Positions 37,122-47,988 of a DNA stretch of 64,000 bases are shown here, piece by piece; within the stretch, counting starts at the first letter, position 1; the number at the start of each line of letters is the position of its first letter. The translations under genes were made by a program, and so were the position numbers. Origin of the DNA: an uncultured Muribaculaceae bacterium (GTDB taxonomy: Bacteria; Bacillota_I; Bacilli_A; RF39; UBA660); assembly GCA_964473455.1 (NCBI GenBank), contig CAYYQX010000001.1, positions 133,380-197,379 of the forward strand, given 5' to 3'. Under the pieces are notes generated by a model. It was not told where the DNA came from, searched no databases, and was given only the letters and a program-made list of their open reading frames with translations.

Positions 37122-37242
37122 AATTATAACATAAAAAATGAGCACAAATAGTAAACCATTTATGCTCAGTAGACGAACTTAATAAATTAAATGCGTCTAG
37201 GTAGTACTATACGTTGTTAAAGTTTCTTTGTCAACCTTTTTT
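37122..37242. repeat. ~122 bp direct repeat, copy 1 (family 2), containing a compensated hairpin, a T-run and TGTTATAAT
   Basis: Near-identical to 38404-38527. Contains TGAGCACAAAT-N8-ATTTATGCTCA. Confidence 0.8.
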
Positions 37243-38403: not shown

Positions 38404-38527
38404 AATTATAACATAAAAAAATGATCACAAATAGTAAACTATTTATGATCAGTAGACGAACTTAATAAATTAAATGCGTCTAGGTAGTACTATACGGCAT
38501 TAAAGATTCTTTGTCAATCTTTTTTTA
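38404..38527. repeat. ~122 bp direct repeat, copy 2 (family 2)
   Basis: Near-identical to 37122-37242. Its hairpin is TGATCACAAAT-N8-ATTTATGATCA, with compensatory changes relative to copy 1. Confidence 0.8.
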
Positions 38528-39687: not shown

Positions 39688-41433
39688 ATGATTAAAATAT
39701 TAAAAAGGTTAGAAAAGAAAGAATTTGGATTAATTGCTATTATTATCGTCTTCATTGTCGCGCAAGTTTGGTTAGACCTTAAATTACCAGACTATATGGC
39801 AGAAATTACGACTTTAATTCAGCAAAGTAACCCTACTGTATCAAAGATTTTAACTCCTGGATTCTATATGTTATTGTGTGCTTTTGGAAGCTTAGCTTTT
39901 TCGGCTATTGCCGGTTTTTTTGCCGCAACAGTTGCGGCAAGTTTTTCAAAGAAAATAAGAGGAGATGTTTTTAGAAAAGTTGAAAGTTTTGGCATGGAAG
40001 AAGTCAAAAAGTTTTCTACTAGTAGTTTGATAAACCGAACTACGAACGATATAACTCAAGTTCAAACTCTAGTAGTAATAGGCCTTCAAATGATTATTAA
40101 ATCCCCTATTATGGCTATTTGGGCAATTAGTAAAATGGCAAGCAAGAGTTGGCAATGGAGCGCTATTACAGGTGGCGCTGTAATGGTTTTAATCTTGATG
40201 ATTACCGTTCTAGTTTTATTTGCTCTACCAAAATTTAAAAAAATTCAAACTTTAACAGACAACCTTAATATGGTAACAAGAGAAGGATTAACTGGCATTA
40301 GAGTTATTAGAGCATTTAATGCTGAAGGCTATCAAGAAAACAGATTTGAAAAAGCAAACAAAGAATTAACAAAAAACAATATGTTTACTCAACGATTAAT
40401 GGCTATAATGTTTCCGGTGATGACATTTACTATGTCTGTTTTAACTTTAGCGATATATTTTGTTGGAGCATATTTAATTGACGCAGCCAATATGGCAGAT
40501 AAGATTGGACTATTTAGTAATATGATTATTTTTTCTTCATATGCTATGCAAGTTGTAATGGCATTTATGATGCTAGTCTTAATTTTTATTATTTACCCAA
40601 GATCAAGTGTTTCTGCTAAAAGAATTGTAGAAGTTTTAAATAGTGAATCTAGTATTAAAGACGGTACTATAACAAAAAGTAAAATCAAGGGAACTGTTGA
40701 ATTTAAAGACGTCTCTTTTAAATATCCTGATGCAGAAGAATATATTTTAAAAGATATTTCTTTTACGGCTAATAAAGGAGAAGTTATTGCCTTTATCGGT
40801 TCAACAGGTTCAGGAAAATCAACACTAATTAATTTAATACCAAGATTTTATGATGTTACTGAAGGAAAAGTTCTTGTTGATGGAGTTGATGTTAGAGACT
40901 TTAAACAAGAGTACCTTTATAATAAAATTGGATATATCCCTCAAAAAGCCGTAATATTTAACGATACGGTAAAAAATAACGTTGCTTATGGAAGTAAAGT
41001 TAACGAAAAAGAAATAAAAAAAGCTATTAAAATCGCGCAAGGAACTGAGTTCGTTGAAAAGATGGCAAACCAATATGAATCTCACGTTGCTCAAGGAGGA
41101 AACAATATATCTGGTGGCCAAAAACAAAGATTAGCTATTGCTAGAGCTATTGCTAGAAACCCGGAAATATATATATTTGATGATTCTTTTTCAGCACTTG
41201 ACTACAAAACAGATTATAACCTAAGAAAAGAGTTGAAGCGTTATACAAAAGAAGTGACAACTTTAATTGTTGCTCAAAGAATTGGCACAATTAAAAATGC
41301 CGATAAGATTATTGTTTTAGATAAAGGTAGTATTGTGGGGATCGGTACTCATAATGATTTATTAAAGAATTGCCAAGTATATAAAGAAATCGCACTATCA
41401 CAGTTATCAAAGGAGGAGTTGACAAATGAATAA
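39688..41433 (+). CDS. ABC transporter permease/ATP-binding protein, type I exporter half-transporter with consensus ATP site
   Basis: Six TM helices, then Walker A GSTGSGKST, signature ISGGQKQR, Walker B IFDDSFSALD. Confidence 0.85.
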   Translation: MIKILKRLEKKEFGLIAIIIVFIVAQVWLDLKLPDYMAEITTLIQQSNPTVSKILTPGFYMLLCAFGSLAFSAIAGFFAATVAASFSKKIRGDVFRKVESFGMEEVKKFSTSSLINRTTNDITQVQTLVVIGLQMIIKSPIMAIWAISKMASKSWQWSAITGGAVMVLILMITVLVLFALPKFKKIQTLTDNLNMVTREGLTGIRVIRAFNAEGYQENRFEKANKELTKNNMFTQRLMAIMFPVMTFTMSVLTLAIYFVGAYLIDAANMADKIGLFSNMIIFSSYAMQVVMAFMMLVLIFIIYPRSSVSAKRIVEVLNSESSIKDGTITKSKIKGTVEFKDVSFKYPDAEEYILKDISFTANKGEVIAFIGSTGSGKSTLINLIPRFYDVTEGKVLVDGVDVRDFKQEYLYNKIGYIPQKAVIFNDTVKNNVAYGSKVNEKEIKKAIKIAQGTEFVEKMANQYESHVAQGGNNISGGQKQRLAIARAIARNPEIYIFDDSFSALDYKTDYNLRKELKRYTKEVTTLIVAQRIGTIKNADKIIVLDKGSIVGIGTHNDLLKNCQVYKEIALSQLSKEELTNE

Positions 41434-43231
41434 TCAAAATAAGCCAAGACCATTTGGTCCTCCAGGAATGGGTGGTGGAGAAAAAGCCAAGAACTTTAAA
41501 AAATCGATAGCTCGATTAGTAAAATATTTAAAACCTTATTTTTTCATTATTTTTGTAGCTATTTTTTTTGCTATTGCTAGTTCGATATTCTCTATAGTTG
41601 GTCCTAGCAAATTAAAGGAAATAGTTGATGTAATAACTAATGGCTTTATGATCAAAATAGATCTTGATAAAATAAAGGATATTGCTCTTTTCTTAGCAAT
41701 TATTTATGCTTTAAGTTGCTTGTTTGGATACATACAAGGCTTTATTATGGCTACAATAACTAATAAGTTCTCAAAAAAACTTCGCAGTGAGTTATCCTTA
41801 AAAATCAATAAATTACCACTAAAGTTTTTCGATAATAATAGTTATGGAGATACTTTATCAAGATTTACAAACGATGTTGATACAATGGGTCAAACCATGA
41901 ACCAAAGCATCGGATCTCTTGTTAGTGCAATAACACTTCTGATTGGTGTATTAATTATGATGTTTGTAACCAATTGGATTATGGCCTCAACAGCAATTGT
42001 CGCAACTTTTATTGGCTTTGCTTTAATGGTTTTAATTCTCTCAAAATCACAAAAATATTTTGCGATGCAGCAAAAAGAATTAGGTAATATTAATGGTCAC
42101 ATTGAAGAAATATATTCTGGATTAAATGTTGTTAAAGTATATAACGGAATTAATCAATCAAATGAGAAGTTTGATAAAATAAATGATCAGTTATATATAA
42201 GTGCTAAAAAAAGCCAATTTATGTCCGGCTTGATGCACCCTATTATGAGCTTTATTGGTAATTTTGGTTATCTTGCTGTTTGTATTGTAGGAGCTGTTTT
42301 AGTTATCAACAATACAATAACTATTGGAACAATTGTCTCTTTTATGATTTATGTCAGATTATTAACCGGTCCTCTAATTAATTTAGCCCAAGCAGCTACA
42401 CAATTACAGTCAACTGCAGCCGCTAGTGAAAGAGTATTTGAGATTTTAGATGAAAAAGAGATGAGTAAAGACTCTAAAAAACAAGTATTGGACGTTAATA
42501 ACATAAAAGGTAATATCGAATTTGAAAATATTACGTTTGGATACAATGAAGATAAAATGGTAATAAATAACTTTAGTGCCAAAGCAAAGAAAGGGCAAAG
42601 AGTTGCGATTGTTGGGCCAACTGGAGCTGGAAAAACGACAATTGTAAATCTGCTTATGAAATTTTATGATATTAATTTTGGAGATATCAAGATTGATAAT
42701 GTTTCTATTAAAGATTTGACTAGAGAAAATATTCATGACTTATTCATTATGGTTTTACAAGATACTTGGTTATTTAGTGGGACTATAAAAGATAATATTG
42801 TGTATAATAAAAAAAATGTTTCAGATGAACAAGTAAAAGAAATTTGTGAAATTGTTGGTATAGATCACTTTATAAATACTCTACCTGATGGCTACGATAC
42901 CATTTTAAGTGATGCAGAAAGCATATCAGCCGGAGAAAAACAGTTGATTACTATTGCTAGAGGAATGTTAGAAAAAAAACCATTCTTAATTTTTGATGAA
43001 GCAACTAGTTCTGTTGACACAAGAACTGAACAATTGGTTCAAAAGGCAATGGAAAAATTAACCGAAGGAAGAACATCGTTTATAATTGCTCATCGTTTAT
43101 CGACTATCAAAAATTCTGACTTAATATTGGTAATGAAAGATGGCAATGTTGTAGAGCAAGGTAACCATCAAGAATTAATTGAAAAAGACGGGTTTTATGC
43201 TGAACTTTATAATTCACAGTTCCAAAATTAA
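41426..43231 (+). CDS. ABC transporter permease/ATP-binding protein, half-transporter with degenerate signature (heterodimer partner)
   Basis: Walker A GPTGAGKTT; signature ISAGEKQ instead of LSGGQ; Walker B LIFDEATSSVD. Translationally coupled to the upstream gene. Confidence 0.85.
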   Translation: MNNQNKPRPFGPPGMGGGEKAKNFKKSIARLVKYLKPYFFIIFVAIFFAIASSIFSIVGPSKLKEIVDVITNGFMIKIDLDKIKDIALFLAIIYALSCLFGYIQGFIMATITNKFSKKLRSELSLKINKLPLKFFDNNSYGDTLSRFTNDVDTMGQTMNQSIGSLVSAITLLIGVLIMMFVTNWIMASTAIVATFIGFALMVLILSKSQKYFAMQQKELGNINGHIEEIYSGLNVVKVYNGINQSNEKFDKINDQLYISAKKSQFMSGLMHPIMSFIGNFGYLAVCIVGAVLVINNTITIGTIVSFMIYVRLLTGPLINLAQAATQLQSTAAASERVFEILDEKEMSKDSKKQVLDVNNIKGNIEFENITFGYNEDKMVINNFSAKAKKGQRVAIVGPTGAGKTTIVNLLMKFYDINFGDIKIDNVSIKDLTRENIHDLFIMVLQDTWLFSGTIKDNIVYNKKNVSDEQVKEICEIVGIDHFINTLPDGYDTILSDAESISAGEKQLITIARGMLEKKPFLIFDEATSSVDTRTEQLVQKAMEKLTEGRTSFIIAHRLSTIKNSDLILVMKDGNVVEQGNHQELIEKDGFYAELYNSQFQN

Positions 43232-43311
43232 TAATTCAAAAACTTGATATTTTCATATCAAGTCTTATATTTCAATTATGACATAGAATCAAAGGGGGTT
43301 CCCAAATTTTT
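43231..43311. repeat. Family-1 ~85 bp intergenic repeat, copy A (variant; perfect palindrome CTTGATAT-TTTC-ATATCAAG)
   Basis: Shares ...cttgatattttcata...agaatcaaagggggttcccaaattttt with the other copies. Lies between the convergent ABC operon end and the GNAT gene stop. Confidence 0.7.
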
Positions 43312-43313
43312 GT

Positions 43314-43793
43314 TTAAATATGCTTCATCACTTCCAAATTTCTGTCTGAATAATTATTTCTATAATAAAAACTCTTAGCCTTTTCGTTATAACCAAAAAC
43401 TTCTATTAATATTGCCTTACAGCCAACCAATTTAAAATGAGTTTCCATCTCATCCATTAATTGTCTTCCTATTCCTTTTGCTCTACAATTACTAGAAACA
43501 ATTAATTCTGTTATTCTTCCTCGTTTTGGCGCTCTAAACTCATAAGTGTTTTGTTCTTCATTATTAATTAAGCCTACTATTAACCCAATAGCTTTGTCAT
43601 TTTCAACAGCTAAAAACATTTTACCTTCAAAATCATTTATTTCTTTTATAGTCTTTTTAAATTCAATCTCCCTGTATTCATCATTAATTATGTTGTAGCC
43701 ATCTTTATCTATTGAAACTATATATTCTTGTAATTCAACCAATAAATCTTTTATGTCTTCGTCATATTTTGTATTATAATCAATTATATTCAT
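43314..43793 (-). CDS. GNAT family N-acetyltransferase (cassette 6)
   Basis: Acetyl-CoA-binding motif RAKGIGRQLM. Confidence 0.7.
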   Translation of the reverse strand: MNIIDYNTKYDEDIKDLLVELQEYIVSIDKDGYNIINDEYREIEFKKTIKEINDFEGKMFLAVENDKAIGLIVGLINNEEQNTYEFRAPKRGRITELIVSSNCRAKGIGRQLMDEMETHFKLVGCKAILIEVFGYNEKAKSFYYRNNYSDRNLEVMKHI

Positions 43794-43810
43794 TATTGCA
43801 CCTCTATATT

Positions 43811-43894
43811 TATTATATCAAAAAACTTGATATTCTCATACCAAGTTCAACTAATTCATATTTGGCATGGAATCAAAGGGGATTCCCAAATTTT
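43811..43894. repeat. Family-1 ~85 bp repeat, copy B (full length)
   Basis: attatatcaaaaaacttgatattctcataccaagttcaactaattcatatttggcatggaatcaaaggggattcccaaatttttt. Confidence 0.85.
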
Positions 43895-44482
43895 TTATTT
43901 CTTATTTTCCACTACAGCTTTTTTATATTTATCATATTCTTTTCGTAAATAATCAAAGGTAACTTCTTTTTTTAATACGACAGGTAATTTCAATAAATAT
44001 TCATAAATTGGCTTTTCATCTCTATATGTTTTCTTATTTTCCCAATAATATTTGGCATTTATTATTGTATCGTAGTTTGACCATCCTCTTATTAAATTCA
44101 TATCATGTTTTTCATAATAATCATATTCTACTTCATAGACTTTAAAGAATTCAAAATCCAATTCCTTTTTTTCAATAAATTGAAATAATCCTTCAATATC
44201 AAAAGCAAAAAAGGATTGGAATCGAGATAGTTTATCAGGATAGTTAATTATTCTTTCATATTCAAATATAATATCCATCCCACTACTTTTTGTATCGTAT
44301 TCATTTAAAAAGTAACGTCTACCATGGAGTGATAACTTGTCATCATATCTTTTTTTAATAATTTCTAAATTTTCTTTAAATACTGGCTTCAAATAGTCAT
44401 ATTTGTCTATATACTCTATTTTTTGATTTTCTTGTAATAAACCGCTTCTATCAATATGATAAAGTTTCATATTTTTCACCAC
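43895..44482 (-). CDS. Hypothetical protein (cassette 5)
   Basis: ORF with an AAGTGGTGA RBS. The stop codon abuts the repeat. Confidence 0.3.
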   Translation of the reverse strand: MVKNMKLYHIDRSGLLQENQKIEYIDKYDYLKPVFKENLEIIKKRYDDKLSLHGRRYFLNEYDTKSSGMDIIFEYERIINYPDKLSRFQSFFAFDIEGLFQFIEKKELDFEFFKVYEVEYDYYEKHDMNLIRGWSNYDTIINAKYYWENKKTYRDEKPIYEYLLKLPVVLKKEVTFDYLRKEYDKYKKAVVENKK

Positions 44483-44577
44483 TTTCTCTTTTATTATAAC
44501 AAAAAACTTGATATTTTCATACCAAGTTCGACTAATTCATATTTGGCATGGAATCAAAGGGGTTTCCCAAATTTTCA
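44483..44577. repeat. Family-1 repeat, copy C (full length; -10 variant TGTTATAAT)
   Basis: ttattataacaaaaaacttgatattttcataccaagttcgactaattcatatttggcatggaatcaaaggggtttcccaaattttca. Confidence 0.85.
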
Positions 44578-44976
44578 TTTATCTTTTTTTTCGATCTTTA
44601 TATGCTTAGCCATATCACCAATTCTTATTGTCTTATCGCCATCACCAGAAATTTCTGTCGGCTCAATTTCTAGTTTTTTCTGTTTAGAACCAAAGATGTT
44701 ATTTGAAAATATAGAAGACATATATTCTGATATATATGCTGTTTCACAAACACACATTTTTTCATAAACTTCAGTAACGTTTAATCTAGCTTTTACTATT
44801 TCTAGATTGCCTAAATTTTCTTTTGTTTCAGGGTCTATAATAGTTTCTCCTTTGCCGATAATTTGCATCATATCGCCTCGGGATATACCATTATTTGAAC
44901 CACCATTTACTATTAACGAAGTATCATTAATTATTTTTATTACTTTAAAATCATTGCTCATTTTCTTTCCCTCCAT
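44575..44976 (-). CDS. Hypothetical soluble protein (cassette 4, second gene)
   Basis: ORF; overlaps the upstream membrane-protein gene by 26 nt. Confidence 0.3.
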   Translation of the reverse strand: MEGKKMSNDFKVIKIINDTSLIVNGGSNNGISRGDMMQIIGKGETIIDPETKENLGNLEIVKARLNVTEVYEKMCVCETAYISEYMSSIFSNNIFGSKQKKLEIEPTEISGDGDKTIRIGDMAKHIKIEKKDK

Positions 44977-45385
44977 TTATATTACCTATGAAATTTTTAA
45001 TAATTGTATTAGTCACTTGCAATTTCTGTTCTTTTGTAATTTTGTCAAATGATATTAATACAGCCATAGTATCAAAAAAAAATTTTTGAAGCATTTCATT
45101 TTTATATATTTCGTTTTTTAACTCTATTTGATTTTCTTTAAAATTATTACTTAAAGCTTGATAATTCATATATTGTTTTTCATATTCTTTATAAAATTTG
45201 TTTACATTTATAACATATATTATCCCATTAATAATCAAACCCAAAATAATTGAACCAATAATAAATGTTATCTTGTAAGAATCAGGAATCTTATTCCAAA
45301 AACTAAACAAAGCAAGAACATTTACTATTGATATAATAAATGTTATCTTCCCTGTAAAAAAACGAGGTTTTTCTCTTATAACCAT
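44951..45385 (-). CDS. Hypothetical membrane protein with two TM helices and a coiled-coil tail (cassette 4, first gene)
   Basis: ORF with an AGGTGA RBS. Hydrophobic segments at residues ~12-30 and ~38-60. Confidence 0.3.
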   Translation of the reverse strand: MVIREKPRFFTGKITFIISIVNVLALFSFWNKIPDSYKITFIIGSIILGLIINGIIYVINVNKFYKEYEKQYMNYQALSNNFKENQIELKNEIYKNEMLQKFFFDTMAVLISFDKITKEQKLQVTNTIIKNFIGNINGGKENEQ

Positions 45386-45620
45386 AAAATCACCTACTGT
45401 ATTAAAACTTTAATATCCTTTTTCTTTATATATCGATATTATATCATTTTTACATAATATAATCCATACTTTCTATTTGCAAAGTTTCAATTCATAGACT
45501 TATGTTCTTCTATGGTTTTCTTAGACAATACTTTTTTCACTTCTCGTTATTATAATAAAAAGTATGATACTCCATTACCATTGTAATTCCGTACCTTTTT
45601 AATATTCCAGCCCATATTTG

Positions 45621-45692
45621 CTTGAAACTTTTAATTATATTGTAAAATTAAATATGAACGTGGATTTCCAAGTTTTACAATATTTATTTTCA
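45621..45692. repeat. Family-1 repeat, degenerate copy D
   Basis: Begins aattatattg, then ...cgtggatttccaagttttacaat, which resembles ...catggaatcaaaggggattcccaaatttt; weak. Confidence 0.35.
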
Positions 45693-45696
45693 AATA

Positions 45697-46191
45697 TTAA
45701 TGTTCTAAATGTTTATGCACTGAATGGGGTAATATTTCAATCTTTTCATCTAAAGATAAGTCATCTCTTTTAATGATGTGTGCAATGCATGATTTCTTAA
45801 TTTTAGCTTTATTTTTAATTAAATAGTCAGCTGATGGTTTCATATATTGAACTATCATTTCAAAGGAACATTTTTCTTCTTCTAATAAAGATAATATTTG
45901 TTCATAAGATAATTCCTTTAATATTTTTATCTTATTTGTTGTAAAATAATATCCTTTTTCATACCCGTCATTTCTGGCTTTGAATTTACATATCTCACCA
46001 AGAGGTGTAACTATACAAACTCTAATATTTTTACTATTACTAAAATTAATTAGTGTTGAACTTATATGCTCTGCATAATGAAACCATTCCCAATTATCAA
46101 TGTTATCGGTTTGATACGTTTTCCCTATCTCAAATTGATAACCGCCATATCCCATAAATTCGCTGTCAAAAGCTTTATAGTATTTAATCAT
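45697..46191 (-). CDS. Hypothetical protein (cassette 3)
   Basis: ORF with a GGAGG RBS. Confidence 0.3.
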   Translation of the reverse strand: MIKYYKAFDSEFMGYGGYQFEIGKTYQTDNIDNWEWFHYAEHISSTLINFSNSKNIRVCIVTPLGEICKFKARNDGYEKGYYFTTNKIKILKELSYEQILSLLEEEKCSFEMIVQYMKPSADYLIKNKAKIKKSCIAHIIKRDDLSLDEKIEILPHSVHKHLEH

Positions 46192-46274
46192 TTAGTACCT
46201 CCAATATACAACTATATTTTACTTTATCTTTCAATCAATCAAATATAAGCATATTGTTTTTCTTTTTTCCACCG

Positions 46275-46303
46275 CATGGAATCAAAGGGGATTCCCAAAT
46301 TTT
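46275..46303. repeat. Family-1 repeat, truncated copy E (3' hairpin half only)
   Basis: catggaatcaaaggggattcccaaatttt immediately after the stop of cassette 2. Confidence 0.6.
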
Positions 46304-46703
46304 ACATTTTTTTGTGATTATTTATATCGTTTAAACCTTCTTCATCAACAATACCAAATGTCTCTCTCAAAAAGTCCATTTCACTATGTTTTAAATTAGA
46401 AAATACAGCTCTATTTATTAAAACACCAGTGTGTTTGTTAAATCTCCAAGGAATATATTTATTTTCCTCGTAGACATTTAGATTACCATCAACAATTTGG
46501 GTACCTATAATCTTGCATTGAGTTGCATAGGCCTCTTTGCTTTCTTTTCCTTCATAATCTACAATTAGATTAAATCCGTAATGCTCTGTACCAAGCATAA
46601 CACCGTTATCTAAAGAAAGATTTTCTTCATTAGTAATCATCACGTTATCTTTAGTACTTAGTTTTAATGTAATTGGATCTAACATTTTTGGTTCTAAAAT
46701 CAT
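46302..46703 (-). CDS. Hypothetical protein (cassette 2)
   Basis: ORF. Start placed at the ATG after an AGAGGTG RBS; the listed GTG is 3 codons upstream. Confidence 0.3.
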   Translation of the reverse strand: MILEPKMLDPITLKLSTKDNVMITNEENLSLDNGVMLGTEHYGFNLIVDYEGKESKEAYATQCKIIGTQIVDGNLNVYEENKYIPWRFNKHTGVLINRAVFSNLKHSEMDFLRETFGIVDEEGLNDINNHKKM

Positions 46704-46722
46704 TATAAACACCTCTATAATA

Positions 46723-46806
46723 ATTATATCAAAAAACTTGATATTTAGATACCAAGTTCAACTAATTTATATATGGCATGGAATCAAAGGGGATTCCCAA
46801 ATTTTT
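46723..46806. repeat. Family-1 repeat, copy F (full length)
   Basis: attatatcaaaaaacttgatatttagataccaagttcaactaatttatatatggcatggaatcaaaggggattcccaaattttt. Confidence 0.85.
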
Positions 46807-46828
46807 AATTTACTCTATATTTTTTGCA

Positions 46829-47848
46829 TTATAATAAATTTTTCATATCATAATCAACTTTATATATAGTATTGTCTAAATAACTAACAATCACTAGTTC
46901 TTTATCAGTATTATATATAAATGTAGCAGCAGTAATACTATTATCATCCTCGATGGTCATATTTCTAATTGATAATTTATAATCATCTGTATGATACTGT
47001 AAAATCTTTAAGATATCTTCTTTATTCTCTATTTTTAATTTTTCTAAAAGGTCTTCACTTTTTTGCAATCTGAATTTTGTATTTGACCCAGGCTCCGCAA
47101 TTGGGAATCCTACTTCTTTTCTAGTAAGATGATTGGAGTGAGCAAACTTATCTTTGACTTCTAATACAGATAAATTATTTAGTCTCCATTCAATTGAATA
47201 AGCTCTTTTGGCGTTTGTATCAATAATATTAACATTACAGCCGCTCGCTGCATCCTCAATATTTAAATGTTCTAATACTTCTTCTATATTTTTACATTCA
47301 ATTAAATTTCTTAAGATAAACCATGTAGGAATGCCGTTAATATTTTTATGGTGAATATATATATAATTACAAGTAAAAATTAAACCATGACTATTCCAGC
47401 TGAAAGTAGAACCTGGCAATGTATCATTACAATAATATTCACAAAAGAAGCCATAATTCGTTATATACTTTATTAAACCTGTATTTTTTAATGAATAAGG
47501 TCCGTCTTCGTTATGACCTCCAATTATTTTGTTACCAATCTTTGCTATAACATCAGTACATCTTTCCCTTTCAGTATATATTTCATAACAAATAAATAAT
47601 AAATAAGCATCTCTGTCTACTTTTGCCCCATCAGCTTTACCATAAGCTTCTTGCAAATATTCGGGATACAATTTTTCTAGCTTTCCTTTTACTATATTCA
47701 AAGTGTCTTTTATTAAAGTGTTTTCAAGTAATTCTCTTGTTATTTTGCAGTTTTCTTGTATATCATCCTTATAAATTTCACCCAATTTATATGAACGTGA
47801 ATACAAATCACCCTCAACTTGACCAATATATAACTTATCAAATCTCAT
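46829..47848 (-). CDS. Hypothetical protein (cassette 1; possible hydrolase, weak)
   Basis: ORF with a GGTGGTGA RBS. GGHNEDG and Cys-rich segments vaguely recall Ntn-hydrolase/C45-like proteins. No confident assignment. Confidence 0.3.
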   Translation of the reverse strand: MRFDKLYIGQVEGDLYSRSYKLGEIYKDDIQENCKITRELLENTLIKDTLNIVKGKLEKLYPEYLQEAYGKADGAKVDRDAYLLFICYEIYTERERCTDVIAKIGNKIIGGHNEDGPYSLKNTGLIKYITNYGFFCEYYCNDTLPGSTFSWNSHGLIFTCNYIYIHHKNINGIPTWFILRNLIECKNIEEVLEHLNIEDAASGCNVNIIDTNAKRAYSIEWRLNNLSVLEVKDKFAHSNHLTRKEVGFPIAEPGSNTKFRLQKSEDLLEKLKIENKEDILKILQYHTDDYKLSIRNMTIEDDNSITAATFIYNTDKELVIVSYLDNTIYKVDYDMKNLL

Positions 47849-47863
47849 ACTATCACCACCATT

Positions 47864-47914
47864 ATTATATCAAAAAACTTGATATTTTCATACCAAGTTC
47901 AACTAATTCATATT
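47864..47914. repeat. Family-1 repeat, copy G (promoter/terminator half) fused directly to the tRNA-Trp 3' end
   Basis: attatatcaaaaaacttgatattttcataccaagttcaactaattcatatt runs into tggca. tggca is both repeat sequence and the complement of the tRNA 3'-TGCCA. Confidence 0.8.
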
Positions 47915-47988
47915 TGGCAGGGGCGGAGAGAATTGAACTCCCAACCACGGTTTTGGAGACCGCTATTATACCATTTAACTACGCCCCT
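47915..47988 (-). tRNA. tRNA-Trp (anticodon CCA), CCA encoded
   Basis: AGGGGCGTAGTTAAATGGTA...GGTCTCCAAAACCGT...GGGAGTTCAATTCTCTCCGCCCCTGCCA closely resembles Bacillus tRNA-Trp. Anticodon loop CTCCAAA. Confidence 0.85.

Follow-up and report, generated by a model that had tools for sequence, protein, structure and literature searches.

A repeated spacer in a putative tRNA-anchored array of gene cassettes from an uncultured low-GC Bacilli-like lineage

A 64,000-nt stretch of DNA from an uncultured bacterium (assembly GCA_964473455.1, contig CAYYQX010000001.1, positions 133,380 to 197,379; hereafter the window) contains seven small minus-strand genes that are separated by copies of one spacer. 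What is this spacer, and what has placed it between these genes? A preliminary description of one copy, which we call copy B, took it for a self-contained module of terminator, extended −10 promoter and ribosome-binding-site spacer. The reading that we prefer, with a probability of roughly 0.6, is that it is the standard spacer of an integron-like array of variable, co-oriented, mostly single-gene cassettes inserted site-specifically at the 3′ end of a tRNA gene.

The spacer is 85–115 nt long. A search by nhmmer with a hidden Markov model of the unit recovered six copies. Each lies on the minus strand within 43213–47928, and the remainder of the 64 kb gave no further copy. An 18-nt core in the 5′ motif had five matches (0.03 expected), and the 34-nt hairpin–promoter motif of the 3′ half had four (0.00 expected). 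The repeat was present where it had been described, at a frequency far beyond chance. Copy B reads AAAATTTGGGAATCCCCTTTGATTCCATGCCA-AATATGAATTAGTT-GAACTTGGTATGAGAATATCAAGTT-TTTT-GATATAAT-AAATATA-GAGGTG-CAATA-ATG on the minus strand, directly after the stop codon of the gene at 43895–44482. A start right after the stop codon had been claimed for every copy; most copies do start within 6 nt of it, but copy F starts 22 nt after.

The unit proved not to be self-contained. Its two halves occur apart, belong to different cassettes and are joined at TGCCA|A; on comparison of the copies, the spacer reads as a composite of two cassette ends. The stop-codon-proximal half, assigned to the upstream cassette, is a motif of ~31 nt (AAATTTGGGAATCCCCTTTGATTCCATGCCA) that ends in TGCCA. 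In tRNA-Trp these five bases are the final base of the acceptor stem, the discriminator and CCA. Every differing continuation of this motif begins immediately past TGCCA. The promoter-proximal half was also found following the tRNA, as well as following other sequence with CTCTGCCA or CTCTGCTA at its end. At the head of the array, the 3′ end of tRNA-Trp (...CCCCTGCCA) adjoins the first spacer without a gap and is followed by AATATGAATTAGTTGAACTTGGTATGAAAATATCAAGTTTTTTGATATAAT, which is the promoter-proximal half; in this copy (G) the tRNA replaces the first ~31 nt. Copy E consists of the 5′ motif followed by unrelated sequence in which no terminator was predicted.

The promoter-proximal half has the composition AATATGAATTAG..GAACTTGGTAT-GAAA-ATATCAAGTT-T6-TGnTATAAT-Shine-Dalgarno sequence (SD), the same sequence as the native tRNA-Trp trailer. 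Intrinsic terminators of low-GC Gram-positive bacteria and extended −10 (TGn) promoters have well-known consensus descriptions, and the 3′ half fits both: it has the stem-loop and U-tract of a predicted intrinsic terminator, and the TGnTATAAT, weak or absent −35 and suitable start-codon distance of a predicted extended −10 promoter of the sigma-70/SigA type. The hairpin of copy B (11 bp, −10.7 kcal/mol, z = −4.7) is followed by U6. Conservation of hairpin and promoter was assessed in a type-1 set of 20 copies from nine genomes. In this set 98.5% of stem cells were paired. Variation affects six of the ten pairs and is confined to one side of each; nine substitutions retain the pair, eight of them as G·U on the cassette-sense strand (C·A mismatches on the opposite strand), three cells break it, and no double compensatory change was found in the 20 copies. 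At least eight unrelated continuations follow the motif at other junctions; five of the eight fold into another hairpin with an immediate T-run, and three then continue with TGTTATAAT. These non-homologous replacements appear to be stronger evidence for a terminator than the pairing within the stem. TGnTATAAT was near-invariant among the type-1 copies and also occurred in the variant units of two related loci (L001 and L002). A promoter scan returned ATGAAA-16-TATAAT with the TG, at a score of 10/12.

Sequence comparison thus bears out a predicted terminator and promoter in each canonical spacer, in that hairpin, T-run and TGnTATAAT are conserved, and most sequences that replace the hairpin and T-run form unrelated equivalents. 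Some details of the preliminary description required correction. The GAAA tetraloop holds for copies C and G, but copy B has GAGA and copy F has CTAA. The stem given as 8 bp includes one G·T pair and extends to 11 bp, followed by a T-run as described. The −10 box lies 15–22 nt, rather than 12–17 nt, ahead of the ATG. The layout had also been thought unusual for gene cassettes, which is not the case in this genome, where a terminator abutting an extended −10 box is the general intergenic arrangement. TGnTATAAT stands 15–25 nt ahead of the start codons of ~15 unrelated window genes, and in most cases directly joins the T-run of the terminator before it. These genes start near 2088, 3982, 7702, 18761, 28787, 33995, 37145, 38428, 39104, 56281 and 57000, among others, with matching boxes near 2063, 4000, 7712, 18770, 28813, 34018, 37123, 38405, 39127, 56297 and 57061. 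The layout is therefore not peculiar to the cassettes, and its distribution implies that very short predicted leaders (~8–18 nt) are the rule in this organism. Unlike ordinary terminators and promoters, however, the layout here sits in a repeat that is near-identical between otherwise highly diverged genomes.

Related loci were collected by a motif scan of species-representative genomes, which gave four loci (L001–L004), and by a scan of JGI metagenomes, which gave five low-GC loci (L010, L011, L012, L015 and L019) and high-GC chance matches. Twenty-nine spacer copies were found in ten loci. Further loci were fetched by means of an Lsa-like ABC-F gene found behind the arrays of L011, L015 and L019; its ORF of ~510 aa had been a candidate serine recombinase, which was rejected when the product proved to be an Lsa-like ABC-F ATPase. 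Every locus from the two scans that was long enough had tRNA-Trp(CCA) upstream and several spacers downstream. The tRNA gene precedes the repeats in L001–L004, L019, L020/L021 and L022, and the 3′ part of one opens L015. The TGCCA of the tRNA is followed directly by the 3′ half in the window, L003, L004 and L015. Cassette content was almost wholly different among loci: homologues in another locus were found for only two cassette proteins (91% and 70% identity). The cargo elsewhere includes GNATs, MazG-like, nucleotidyltransferase-like, nucleoside-phosphorylase-like and nitrilase-like proteins, and hypothetical proteins. A rare hairpin variant, AGTATCAAG, accompanies the sole cassette common to L003 and L019, in its upstream half-spacer. 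The variant travels with the shared cassette, and the promoter-proximal half is therefore linked to the downstream gene. The contigs of L001–L004 are recorded as Ignavibacteriales or Muribaculaceae metagenome-assembled genomes (MAGs); these labels probably reflect mis-binning or mislabelling, because the contigs have 25–28% G+C and Firmicute-type genes (SleB, GlmM, TrpRS, RNase J).

Among the fetched loci, L022 (GCA_029005115.1, 'MAG: Bacilli bacterium') has an empty site, in which TrpRS is followed by tRNA-Trp, ...CCCCTGCCA|ATTAGTAATTATGCGAACA..., and ABC-F. In L019 and L011 the right flank is as in L022, but it is preceded by the 5′ motif, ...GATTCCATGCCA|; the insert in L019 starts immediately past the tRNA's own TGCCA. 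L020 and L021 are also empty, and there a type-1 hairpin and T-run apparently serve as the tRNA's own terminator.

The anchoring tRNA is Trp in most loci and His in one. In the latter, L024 (GCA_964397275.1, CAYNHX010000003.1; 1180–4370), an analogous array with a different spacer sequence lies behind tRNA-His(GTG) and carries four cassettes (S51 peptidase, GNAT, SDR, UDG). The tRNA ends ...TATTCGCCCCA|TCAAGAGAG. A 33-nt end motif (AAAACGTTTTGTGCCTATTGGAATATCGCCCCA| or close variants) occurs in three copies, after three of the four cassettes; two copies end in GCCCCA or TCGCCCCA, matching the 3′ end of tRNA-His, and the third, which is decayed, ends in CTCCA. The third cassette (SDR) has only an unrelated stretch ending in GGCCCCA. 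At two of the four junctions, and at the tRNA itself, TTAAGAGAG..CGAACCTTCCAATAGGATGGTTCG-T-run..TGATATATAAT follows. On these comparisons, two unrelated spacer families share one architecture, in which the motif ends in the terminal 5–8 nt of its own anchoring tRNA. In both systems the junction is exactly at the CCA end of the tRNA, and the final bases of the distal motif are TGCCA (Trp) or (TC)GCCCCA (His), an identity of only 5–10 nt. We infer that the chance of both matches falling exactly at the junction is below 10^-6.

From the anatomy, the conservation, the tRNA link, the variable cassettes and the empty site, we infer how termination, initiation, recombination and its enzyme might work. 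The promoter-proximal half would stop transcription arriving from the tRNA or the upstream cassette, and the −35-poor extended −10 promoter would then start transcription of the next gene with a leader of 8–15 nt. Each cassette would be an insulated, self-expressed transcription unit. A site-specific recombinase supplied in trans would use the TGCCA|A context as its crossover or target site. It would insert cassettes where the sequence resembles a tRNA end, and cassettes could also disappear or be swapped between genomes. Every junction restores the '...TGCCA|AATATG...' context found at the tRNA. An insertion would recreate this context because the distal end of the cassette copies the tRNA end and the proximal end copies the tRNA trailer. 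Taken further, and more tentatively, the locus may belong to a gene-capture platform of uncultured low-GC Bacilli that uses a tRNA 3′ end as target, a tRNA-copying end motif of ~31–33 nt, a portable terminator–promoter by which each captured gene would be expressed on its own, and a recombinase, encoded elsewhere, that would shift cassettes both inside one genome and from one genome to another.

Several observations weigh against site-specific insertion of self-expressed cassettes. No integrase, transposase or insertion sequence was found among window ORFs of at least ~100 aa (two ORFs of ~150 aa were not scanned), and no recombinase was found in the scanned or identifiable upstream flanks of L001–L004, L022 and L024, or in the cassettes. 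The situation may resemble that of clusters of attC sites lacking integron-integrases (CALIN), with an integrase at a distance. No circular or excised form was seen. Trp-type units also occur in L028 with no tRNA in the fetched DNA (~9.5 kb upstream), and in L020 several kb downstream of the tRNA. The identity to the tRNA end is short, at 5–8 nt, or 10/11 nt with one gap in one tRNA-His unit, and direct repeats of 85–100 nt could also support RecA-dependent exchange. As regards expression, a simple terminator scan omitted the 3′ hairpin because its stem holds only two G-C pairs, whereas the scan requires at least three, and a start predicted ~7 nt past the −10 box would put the SD at the extreme 5′ end of the mRNA.

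One contig was considered as an excised circle. Logan contig L005 (SRR8925806) has 1141 bp, corresponds to window 46777–47917, i.e. to one repeat period, and runs from CCAAATATG... to ...GATTCCATG, with its two ends at cassette boundaries. The circle was rejected: both ends sit where 31-mers become shared among copies, and the ends are therefore due to de Bruijn graph branching. Subterminal inverted repeats are present in both spacer families. In the Trp unit TTTGATTCCA/TGGTATGAAA match at 8/10 positions; in the His unit CCTATTGGAA/TTCCAATAGG form a perfect 10-bp pair, located past the cassette-end motif and ahead of the loop of the terminator hairpin that follows. They could be recombinase arm sites or coincidence.

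The strongest rival, which we regard as unlikely, is as follows: RecA-dependent recombination or transformation shuffles genes between the repeats with no dedicated recombinase, and the TGCCA match arises since the first spacer is the tRNA trailer. It agrees with the failure to find a recombinase near any array, with repeats long and similar enough for homologous exchange, and with conservation that spans both spacer halves, beyond a short core. It leaves unexplained, however, that a ~31-nt motif ends in the last 5–8 nt of its own tRNA in two unrelated families (Trp and His), that at least eight sequences begin exactly past TGCCA, and that the motif is near-invariant between genomes whose core proteins are ~45–60% identical (RnfC of the window has relatives at no more than 47% identity; orthologues shared with L019 are ~60% identical). 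Gene conversion would also be expected to homogenise copies within a genome, which was not observed. Unit identity was 0.813 within genomes and 0.814 between genomes, and the repeats can therefore not be put down to local duplication or gene conversion.

A role in RNA punctuation seems less probable again. The motif and trailer would mimic a tRNA 3′ processing site at which read-through RNA is cut or trimmed, or would act as a 3′-untranslated region (UTR) stabiliser or antisense terminator, in a cluster inherited vertically. The motif does lie in the 3′ UTR of every cassette and has a tRNA-like NCCA end; the opposite strand was flagged as terminator-like (GGAATC..GATTCC, then CAAATTTTT); and in copy B an outer stem AUUUGG/CCAAAU stacks on the inner hairpin. 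The inner hairpin, GGAATC/GATTCC, had been part of the preliminary description. The sequence is there, but in copy B it folds weakly (−6.9 kcal/mol, z = −1.3), and in copies A and C the stem is disrupted. Over 22 copies 86.5% of cells were paired, equal to the column-shuffle value, and 17 unpaired cells stood against seven pair-preserving changes. Conservation of hairpins in relatives, which the preliminary description had made a test, thus holds for the promoter-proximal hairpin but not for this one, which was rejected as a selected structure. What is conserved appears to be sequence, chiefly CCCTTTGATTCCATGCCA, and not structure. The outer stem is missing in many copies. The motif was also rejected as a tRNA 3′ half, because T-stem pairing fails; it could not be aligned in register to the T-arm/acceptor minihelix, and a faint likeness to the T-arm in MAFFT was not significant. 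A processing signal, moreover, would have no need to share the particular discriminator and final acceptor bases of the tRNA next to it, and vertical inheritance accounts neither for identical spacers with differing cassettes nor for the empty site.

A selfish intergenic repeat of the miniature inverted-repeat transposable element (MITE), repetitive extragenic palindrome (REP) or BOX type, inserted between existing genes and resembling a terminator and promoter by chance, would suit the ~100-nt size, internal inverted repeats and intergenic site, but is highly improbable given six copies in a single 4.7-kb array, one per gene boundary and all gene-oriented, those with the promoter half ending at the SD, halves found separately at the array ends, no terminal inverted repeats or variable target duplications, and no copy of either spacer half in phage, plasmid and viral contig collections. 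Site-specific cassette insertion agrees better than any of these three rivals with the tRNA-end rule shared by two systems, with junctions at exact positions, with the empty site and with copies that are not homogenised inside a genome.

The array resembles integrons, among them chromosomal super-integrons with homogeneous VCR-type attC repeats, in several ways. Accessory cassettes (GNATs, small hydrolases, hypothetical proteins) are co-oriented and mostly single-gene, a conserved repeat follows each, the array would grow from a fixed anchor and has content that varies among relatives, and each repeat unites the ends of two cassettes. It differs in that there is no adjacent IntI, attI or Pc, a tRNA gene's 3′ end serves as anchor, the cassettes carry their own predicted terminator and promoter, and the host is a low-GC Bacilli-like lineage. 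Integron cassettes are described as generally promoterless in two reports (PMC11511950; 10.1101/2023.11.21.568050). Spacers were rejected as attC sites: the R''/R' cores are not conserved (GTTGAAC in three window copies is GTCGAAC, ATCAAAC, AATGAAC or GTAGAAC elsewhere, with no RYYYAAC partner), and the spacer folds into two local hairpins rather than the single long imperfect hairpin of attC. By its defining tests, the array is not an integron.

Tycheposons of Prochlorococcus insert at the 3′ end of tRNA genes, push older insertions distally and leave partial copies of the tRNA end at junctions (10.1101/2020.12.28.424599). Such tRNA-targeting elements span kilobases, encode a tyrosine recombinase of their own, often with replication genes, and duplicate a substantial tRNA segment. 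The units here, in contrast, are single genes of 0.5–1.1 kb with no recombinase and a standardised terminator–promoter head, and their tRNA copy is only 5–10 nt that close a distinct ~31-nt motif. Tandem accretion at tRNA genes is reportedly also seen in genomic islands, integrative and mobilizable elements (IMEs) and cis-mobilizable elements (CIMEs), and in ssrA islands of Dehalococcoides. Its cassettes are single genes and no element carries an integrase, so that the array described here falls outside the classical tRNA-integrating islands and tycheposons. REP sequences and bacterial interspersed mosaic elements (BIMEs), Correia elements, BOX and RUP are likewise short hairpin repeats able to terminate, stabilise or promote transcription of neighbours; they are scattered genome-wide in both orientations, whereas the spacers form one array, strictly oriented and with one per gene boundary, and the window searches gave no sign of dispersal. 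Rfam searches at gathering and permissive thresholds returned tRNA only, and we found nothing in the literature equivalent to such tRNA-anchored arrays. The locus appears to combine integron-like cassette arrays with tRNA-end integration, which suggests an apparently undescribed gene-capture system.

The features of the array are listed in Table 1.

Table 1. Features of the cassette array in the window, and positions of the ABC-F gene in related loci
Feature	Position	Strand	Description
tRNA-Trp (anticodon CCA)	47915..47988	-	anchors and heads the array; ARAGORN, Rfam RF00005 63.7 bits
Spacer copy G	47849..47914	-	3′ half only (tRNA trailer); starts AATATGAATTAG
Parts of copy G		-	hairpin 47876-47900, T-run, TGATATAAT 47864-47872, SD, then ATG of cassette 1
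Cassette 1	46829..47848	-	C45/AAT-family acyltransferase-hydrolase, 339 aa; Pfam PF03417, NCBIfam NF040521
Spacer copy F (full)	46713..46828	-	5′ motif 46774-46806, hairpin 46735-46759, TGATATAAT 46723-46731
Cassette 2	46302..46703	-	hypothetical protein, 133 aa from ATG at 46703; no family match
Spacer copy E	46192..46301	-	5′ motif only, 46274-46303 (...CCATGC)
Cassette 3	45697..46191	-	DUF7666 protein, 164 aa; Pfam PF24703
Spacer D	45386..45696	-	311 nt; degenerate unit (CTTGGAAATCCACGTTCAT..., TGGTAATGGAGTATCATACTTTTTATTATAAT; ...GAGTATCATACTTTTTATTATAAT)
Cassette 4	44575..45385	-	two overlapping small genes: 144-aa membrane-like protein and 133-aa protein
Spacer copy C (full)	44483..44574	-	5′ motif 44544-44575, hairpin 44505-44529, TGTTATAAT 44493-44501
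Cassette 5	43895..44470 from ATG (gene 43895-44482)	-	hypothetical protein, 191 aa
Spacer copy B (feature under study)	43794..43894	-	junction 43863|43862
Copy B, 5′ part	43894-43863	-	AAAATTTGGGAATCCCCTTTGATTCCATGCCA, ends in TGCCA; upstream stop TAA 43897-43895; linker AATATGAATTAGTT
Copy B, predicted terminator	43848-43824	-	hairpin GAACTTGGTAT-GAGA-ATATCAAGTT; T-run 43825-43820
Copy B, predicted promoter and start	43820-43812	-	extended −10 TGATATAAT; SD GAGGTG 43804-43799; ATG 43793
Cassette 6	43314..43793	-	GNAT acetyltransferase, 159 aa; Pfam PF00583, NCBIfam
Spacer copy A (array end)	43232..43313	-	5′ motif variant 43279-43311 (...TCTATGTCA), hairpin 43241-43264, T-run
Convergent ABC exporter gene	41426..43231	+	distal boundary of the array, not a member
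Lsa-type ABC-F gene	L019:4144-5664, L015:865-2403, L022:10001-11524, L024:4369-5898, L030:73-1611		77-99% identical between loci

In copy C the 5′ motif shares one base, the final A of the TGA stop codon, with the gene upstream. The likeness of spacer D to the unit was read from the sequence and is under the nhmmer threshold; a second TGATATAAT box lies at 45438–45446, ~50 nt ahead of the next gene, and the spacer as a whole suggests an old, degenerated junction. Copy A has no promoter and adjoins the convergent ABC exporter gene. Its perfect palindrome (CTTGATAT/ATATCAAG), 10 nt from the end of that gene, was confirmed; the further claim that it is a bidirectional terminator is plausible, but the tail on the ABC strand is only UCUUAUAUUU. 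Outside the array the window consists of core chromosomal genes (ribosomal proteins, RpoA, SecY, RF1, aminoacyl-tRNA synthetases, Rnf, hydrogenase). The cassettes, at 22–29% G+C, are slightly AT-richer than neighbouring genes (28–32%; window 28.9%). The two other tRNA genes of the window (Ala and Leu) have no comparable arrays, and PADLOC defence models gave 0 matches among the seven cassette proteins.

The Lsa-type ABC-F gene was found in four settings: just past a Trp array, past an empty tRNA-Trp site, past the His array, and directly behind a type-1 spacer. The last setting is that of L030, where a type-1 unit with the rare linker variant of copy A directly precedes the gene and is predicted to drive it directly. 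This ribosome-protection gene may be cargo of the cassette system. Two genomes that encode identical ABC-F proteins, those of L026 and L027, differ in one gene (L026 5650–7180; L027 4365–5730), which is replaced between conserved flanks that each carry TTTTTACGTAA. In this sister lineage the exchange may mark a further junction of the cassette type.

If the cassettes are mobile, they would represent a second, independent solution to the integron problem, with a fixed chromosomal site at which each gene arrives pre-insulated and self-expressed. Expression would then be independent of the distance from a single promoter, unlike in integrons. To our knowledge, no integrons are known in the host group, which is known only from metagenomes. 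With GNAT acetyltransferases and a nucleotidyltransferase-like protein as cargo, and ABC-F in or next to some arrays, such a system could move resistance-type genes. The Trp/TGCCA and His/GCCCCA pairs provide a concrete sequence rule that can be tested and used to seek the enzyme. Regardless of mobility, the compact layout of terminator, TGn promoter and short leader would offer a ready-made portable expression unit.

The window also contains a second repeat family, at 37133–37242 and 38416–38525 on the minus strand, whose two copies are 93% identical and had no Rfam match. Each has a TTGACA-17-TATAGT promoter followed by a ~65-nt RNA with two hairpins (−25.3 and −23.6 kcal/mol; z about −6). 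Of these hairpins, the second is a predicted terminator with one compensatory change (GAGCA/TGCTC vs GATCA/TGATC), after which comes the TGTTATAAT promoter of the next gene. This family is a candidate for a duplicated small RNA gene ahead of two adjacent genes.

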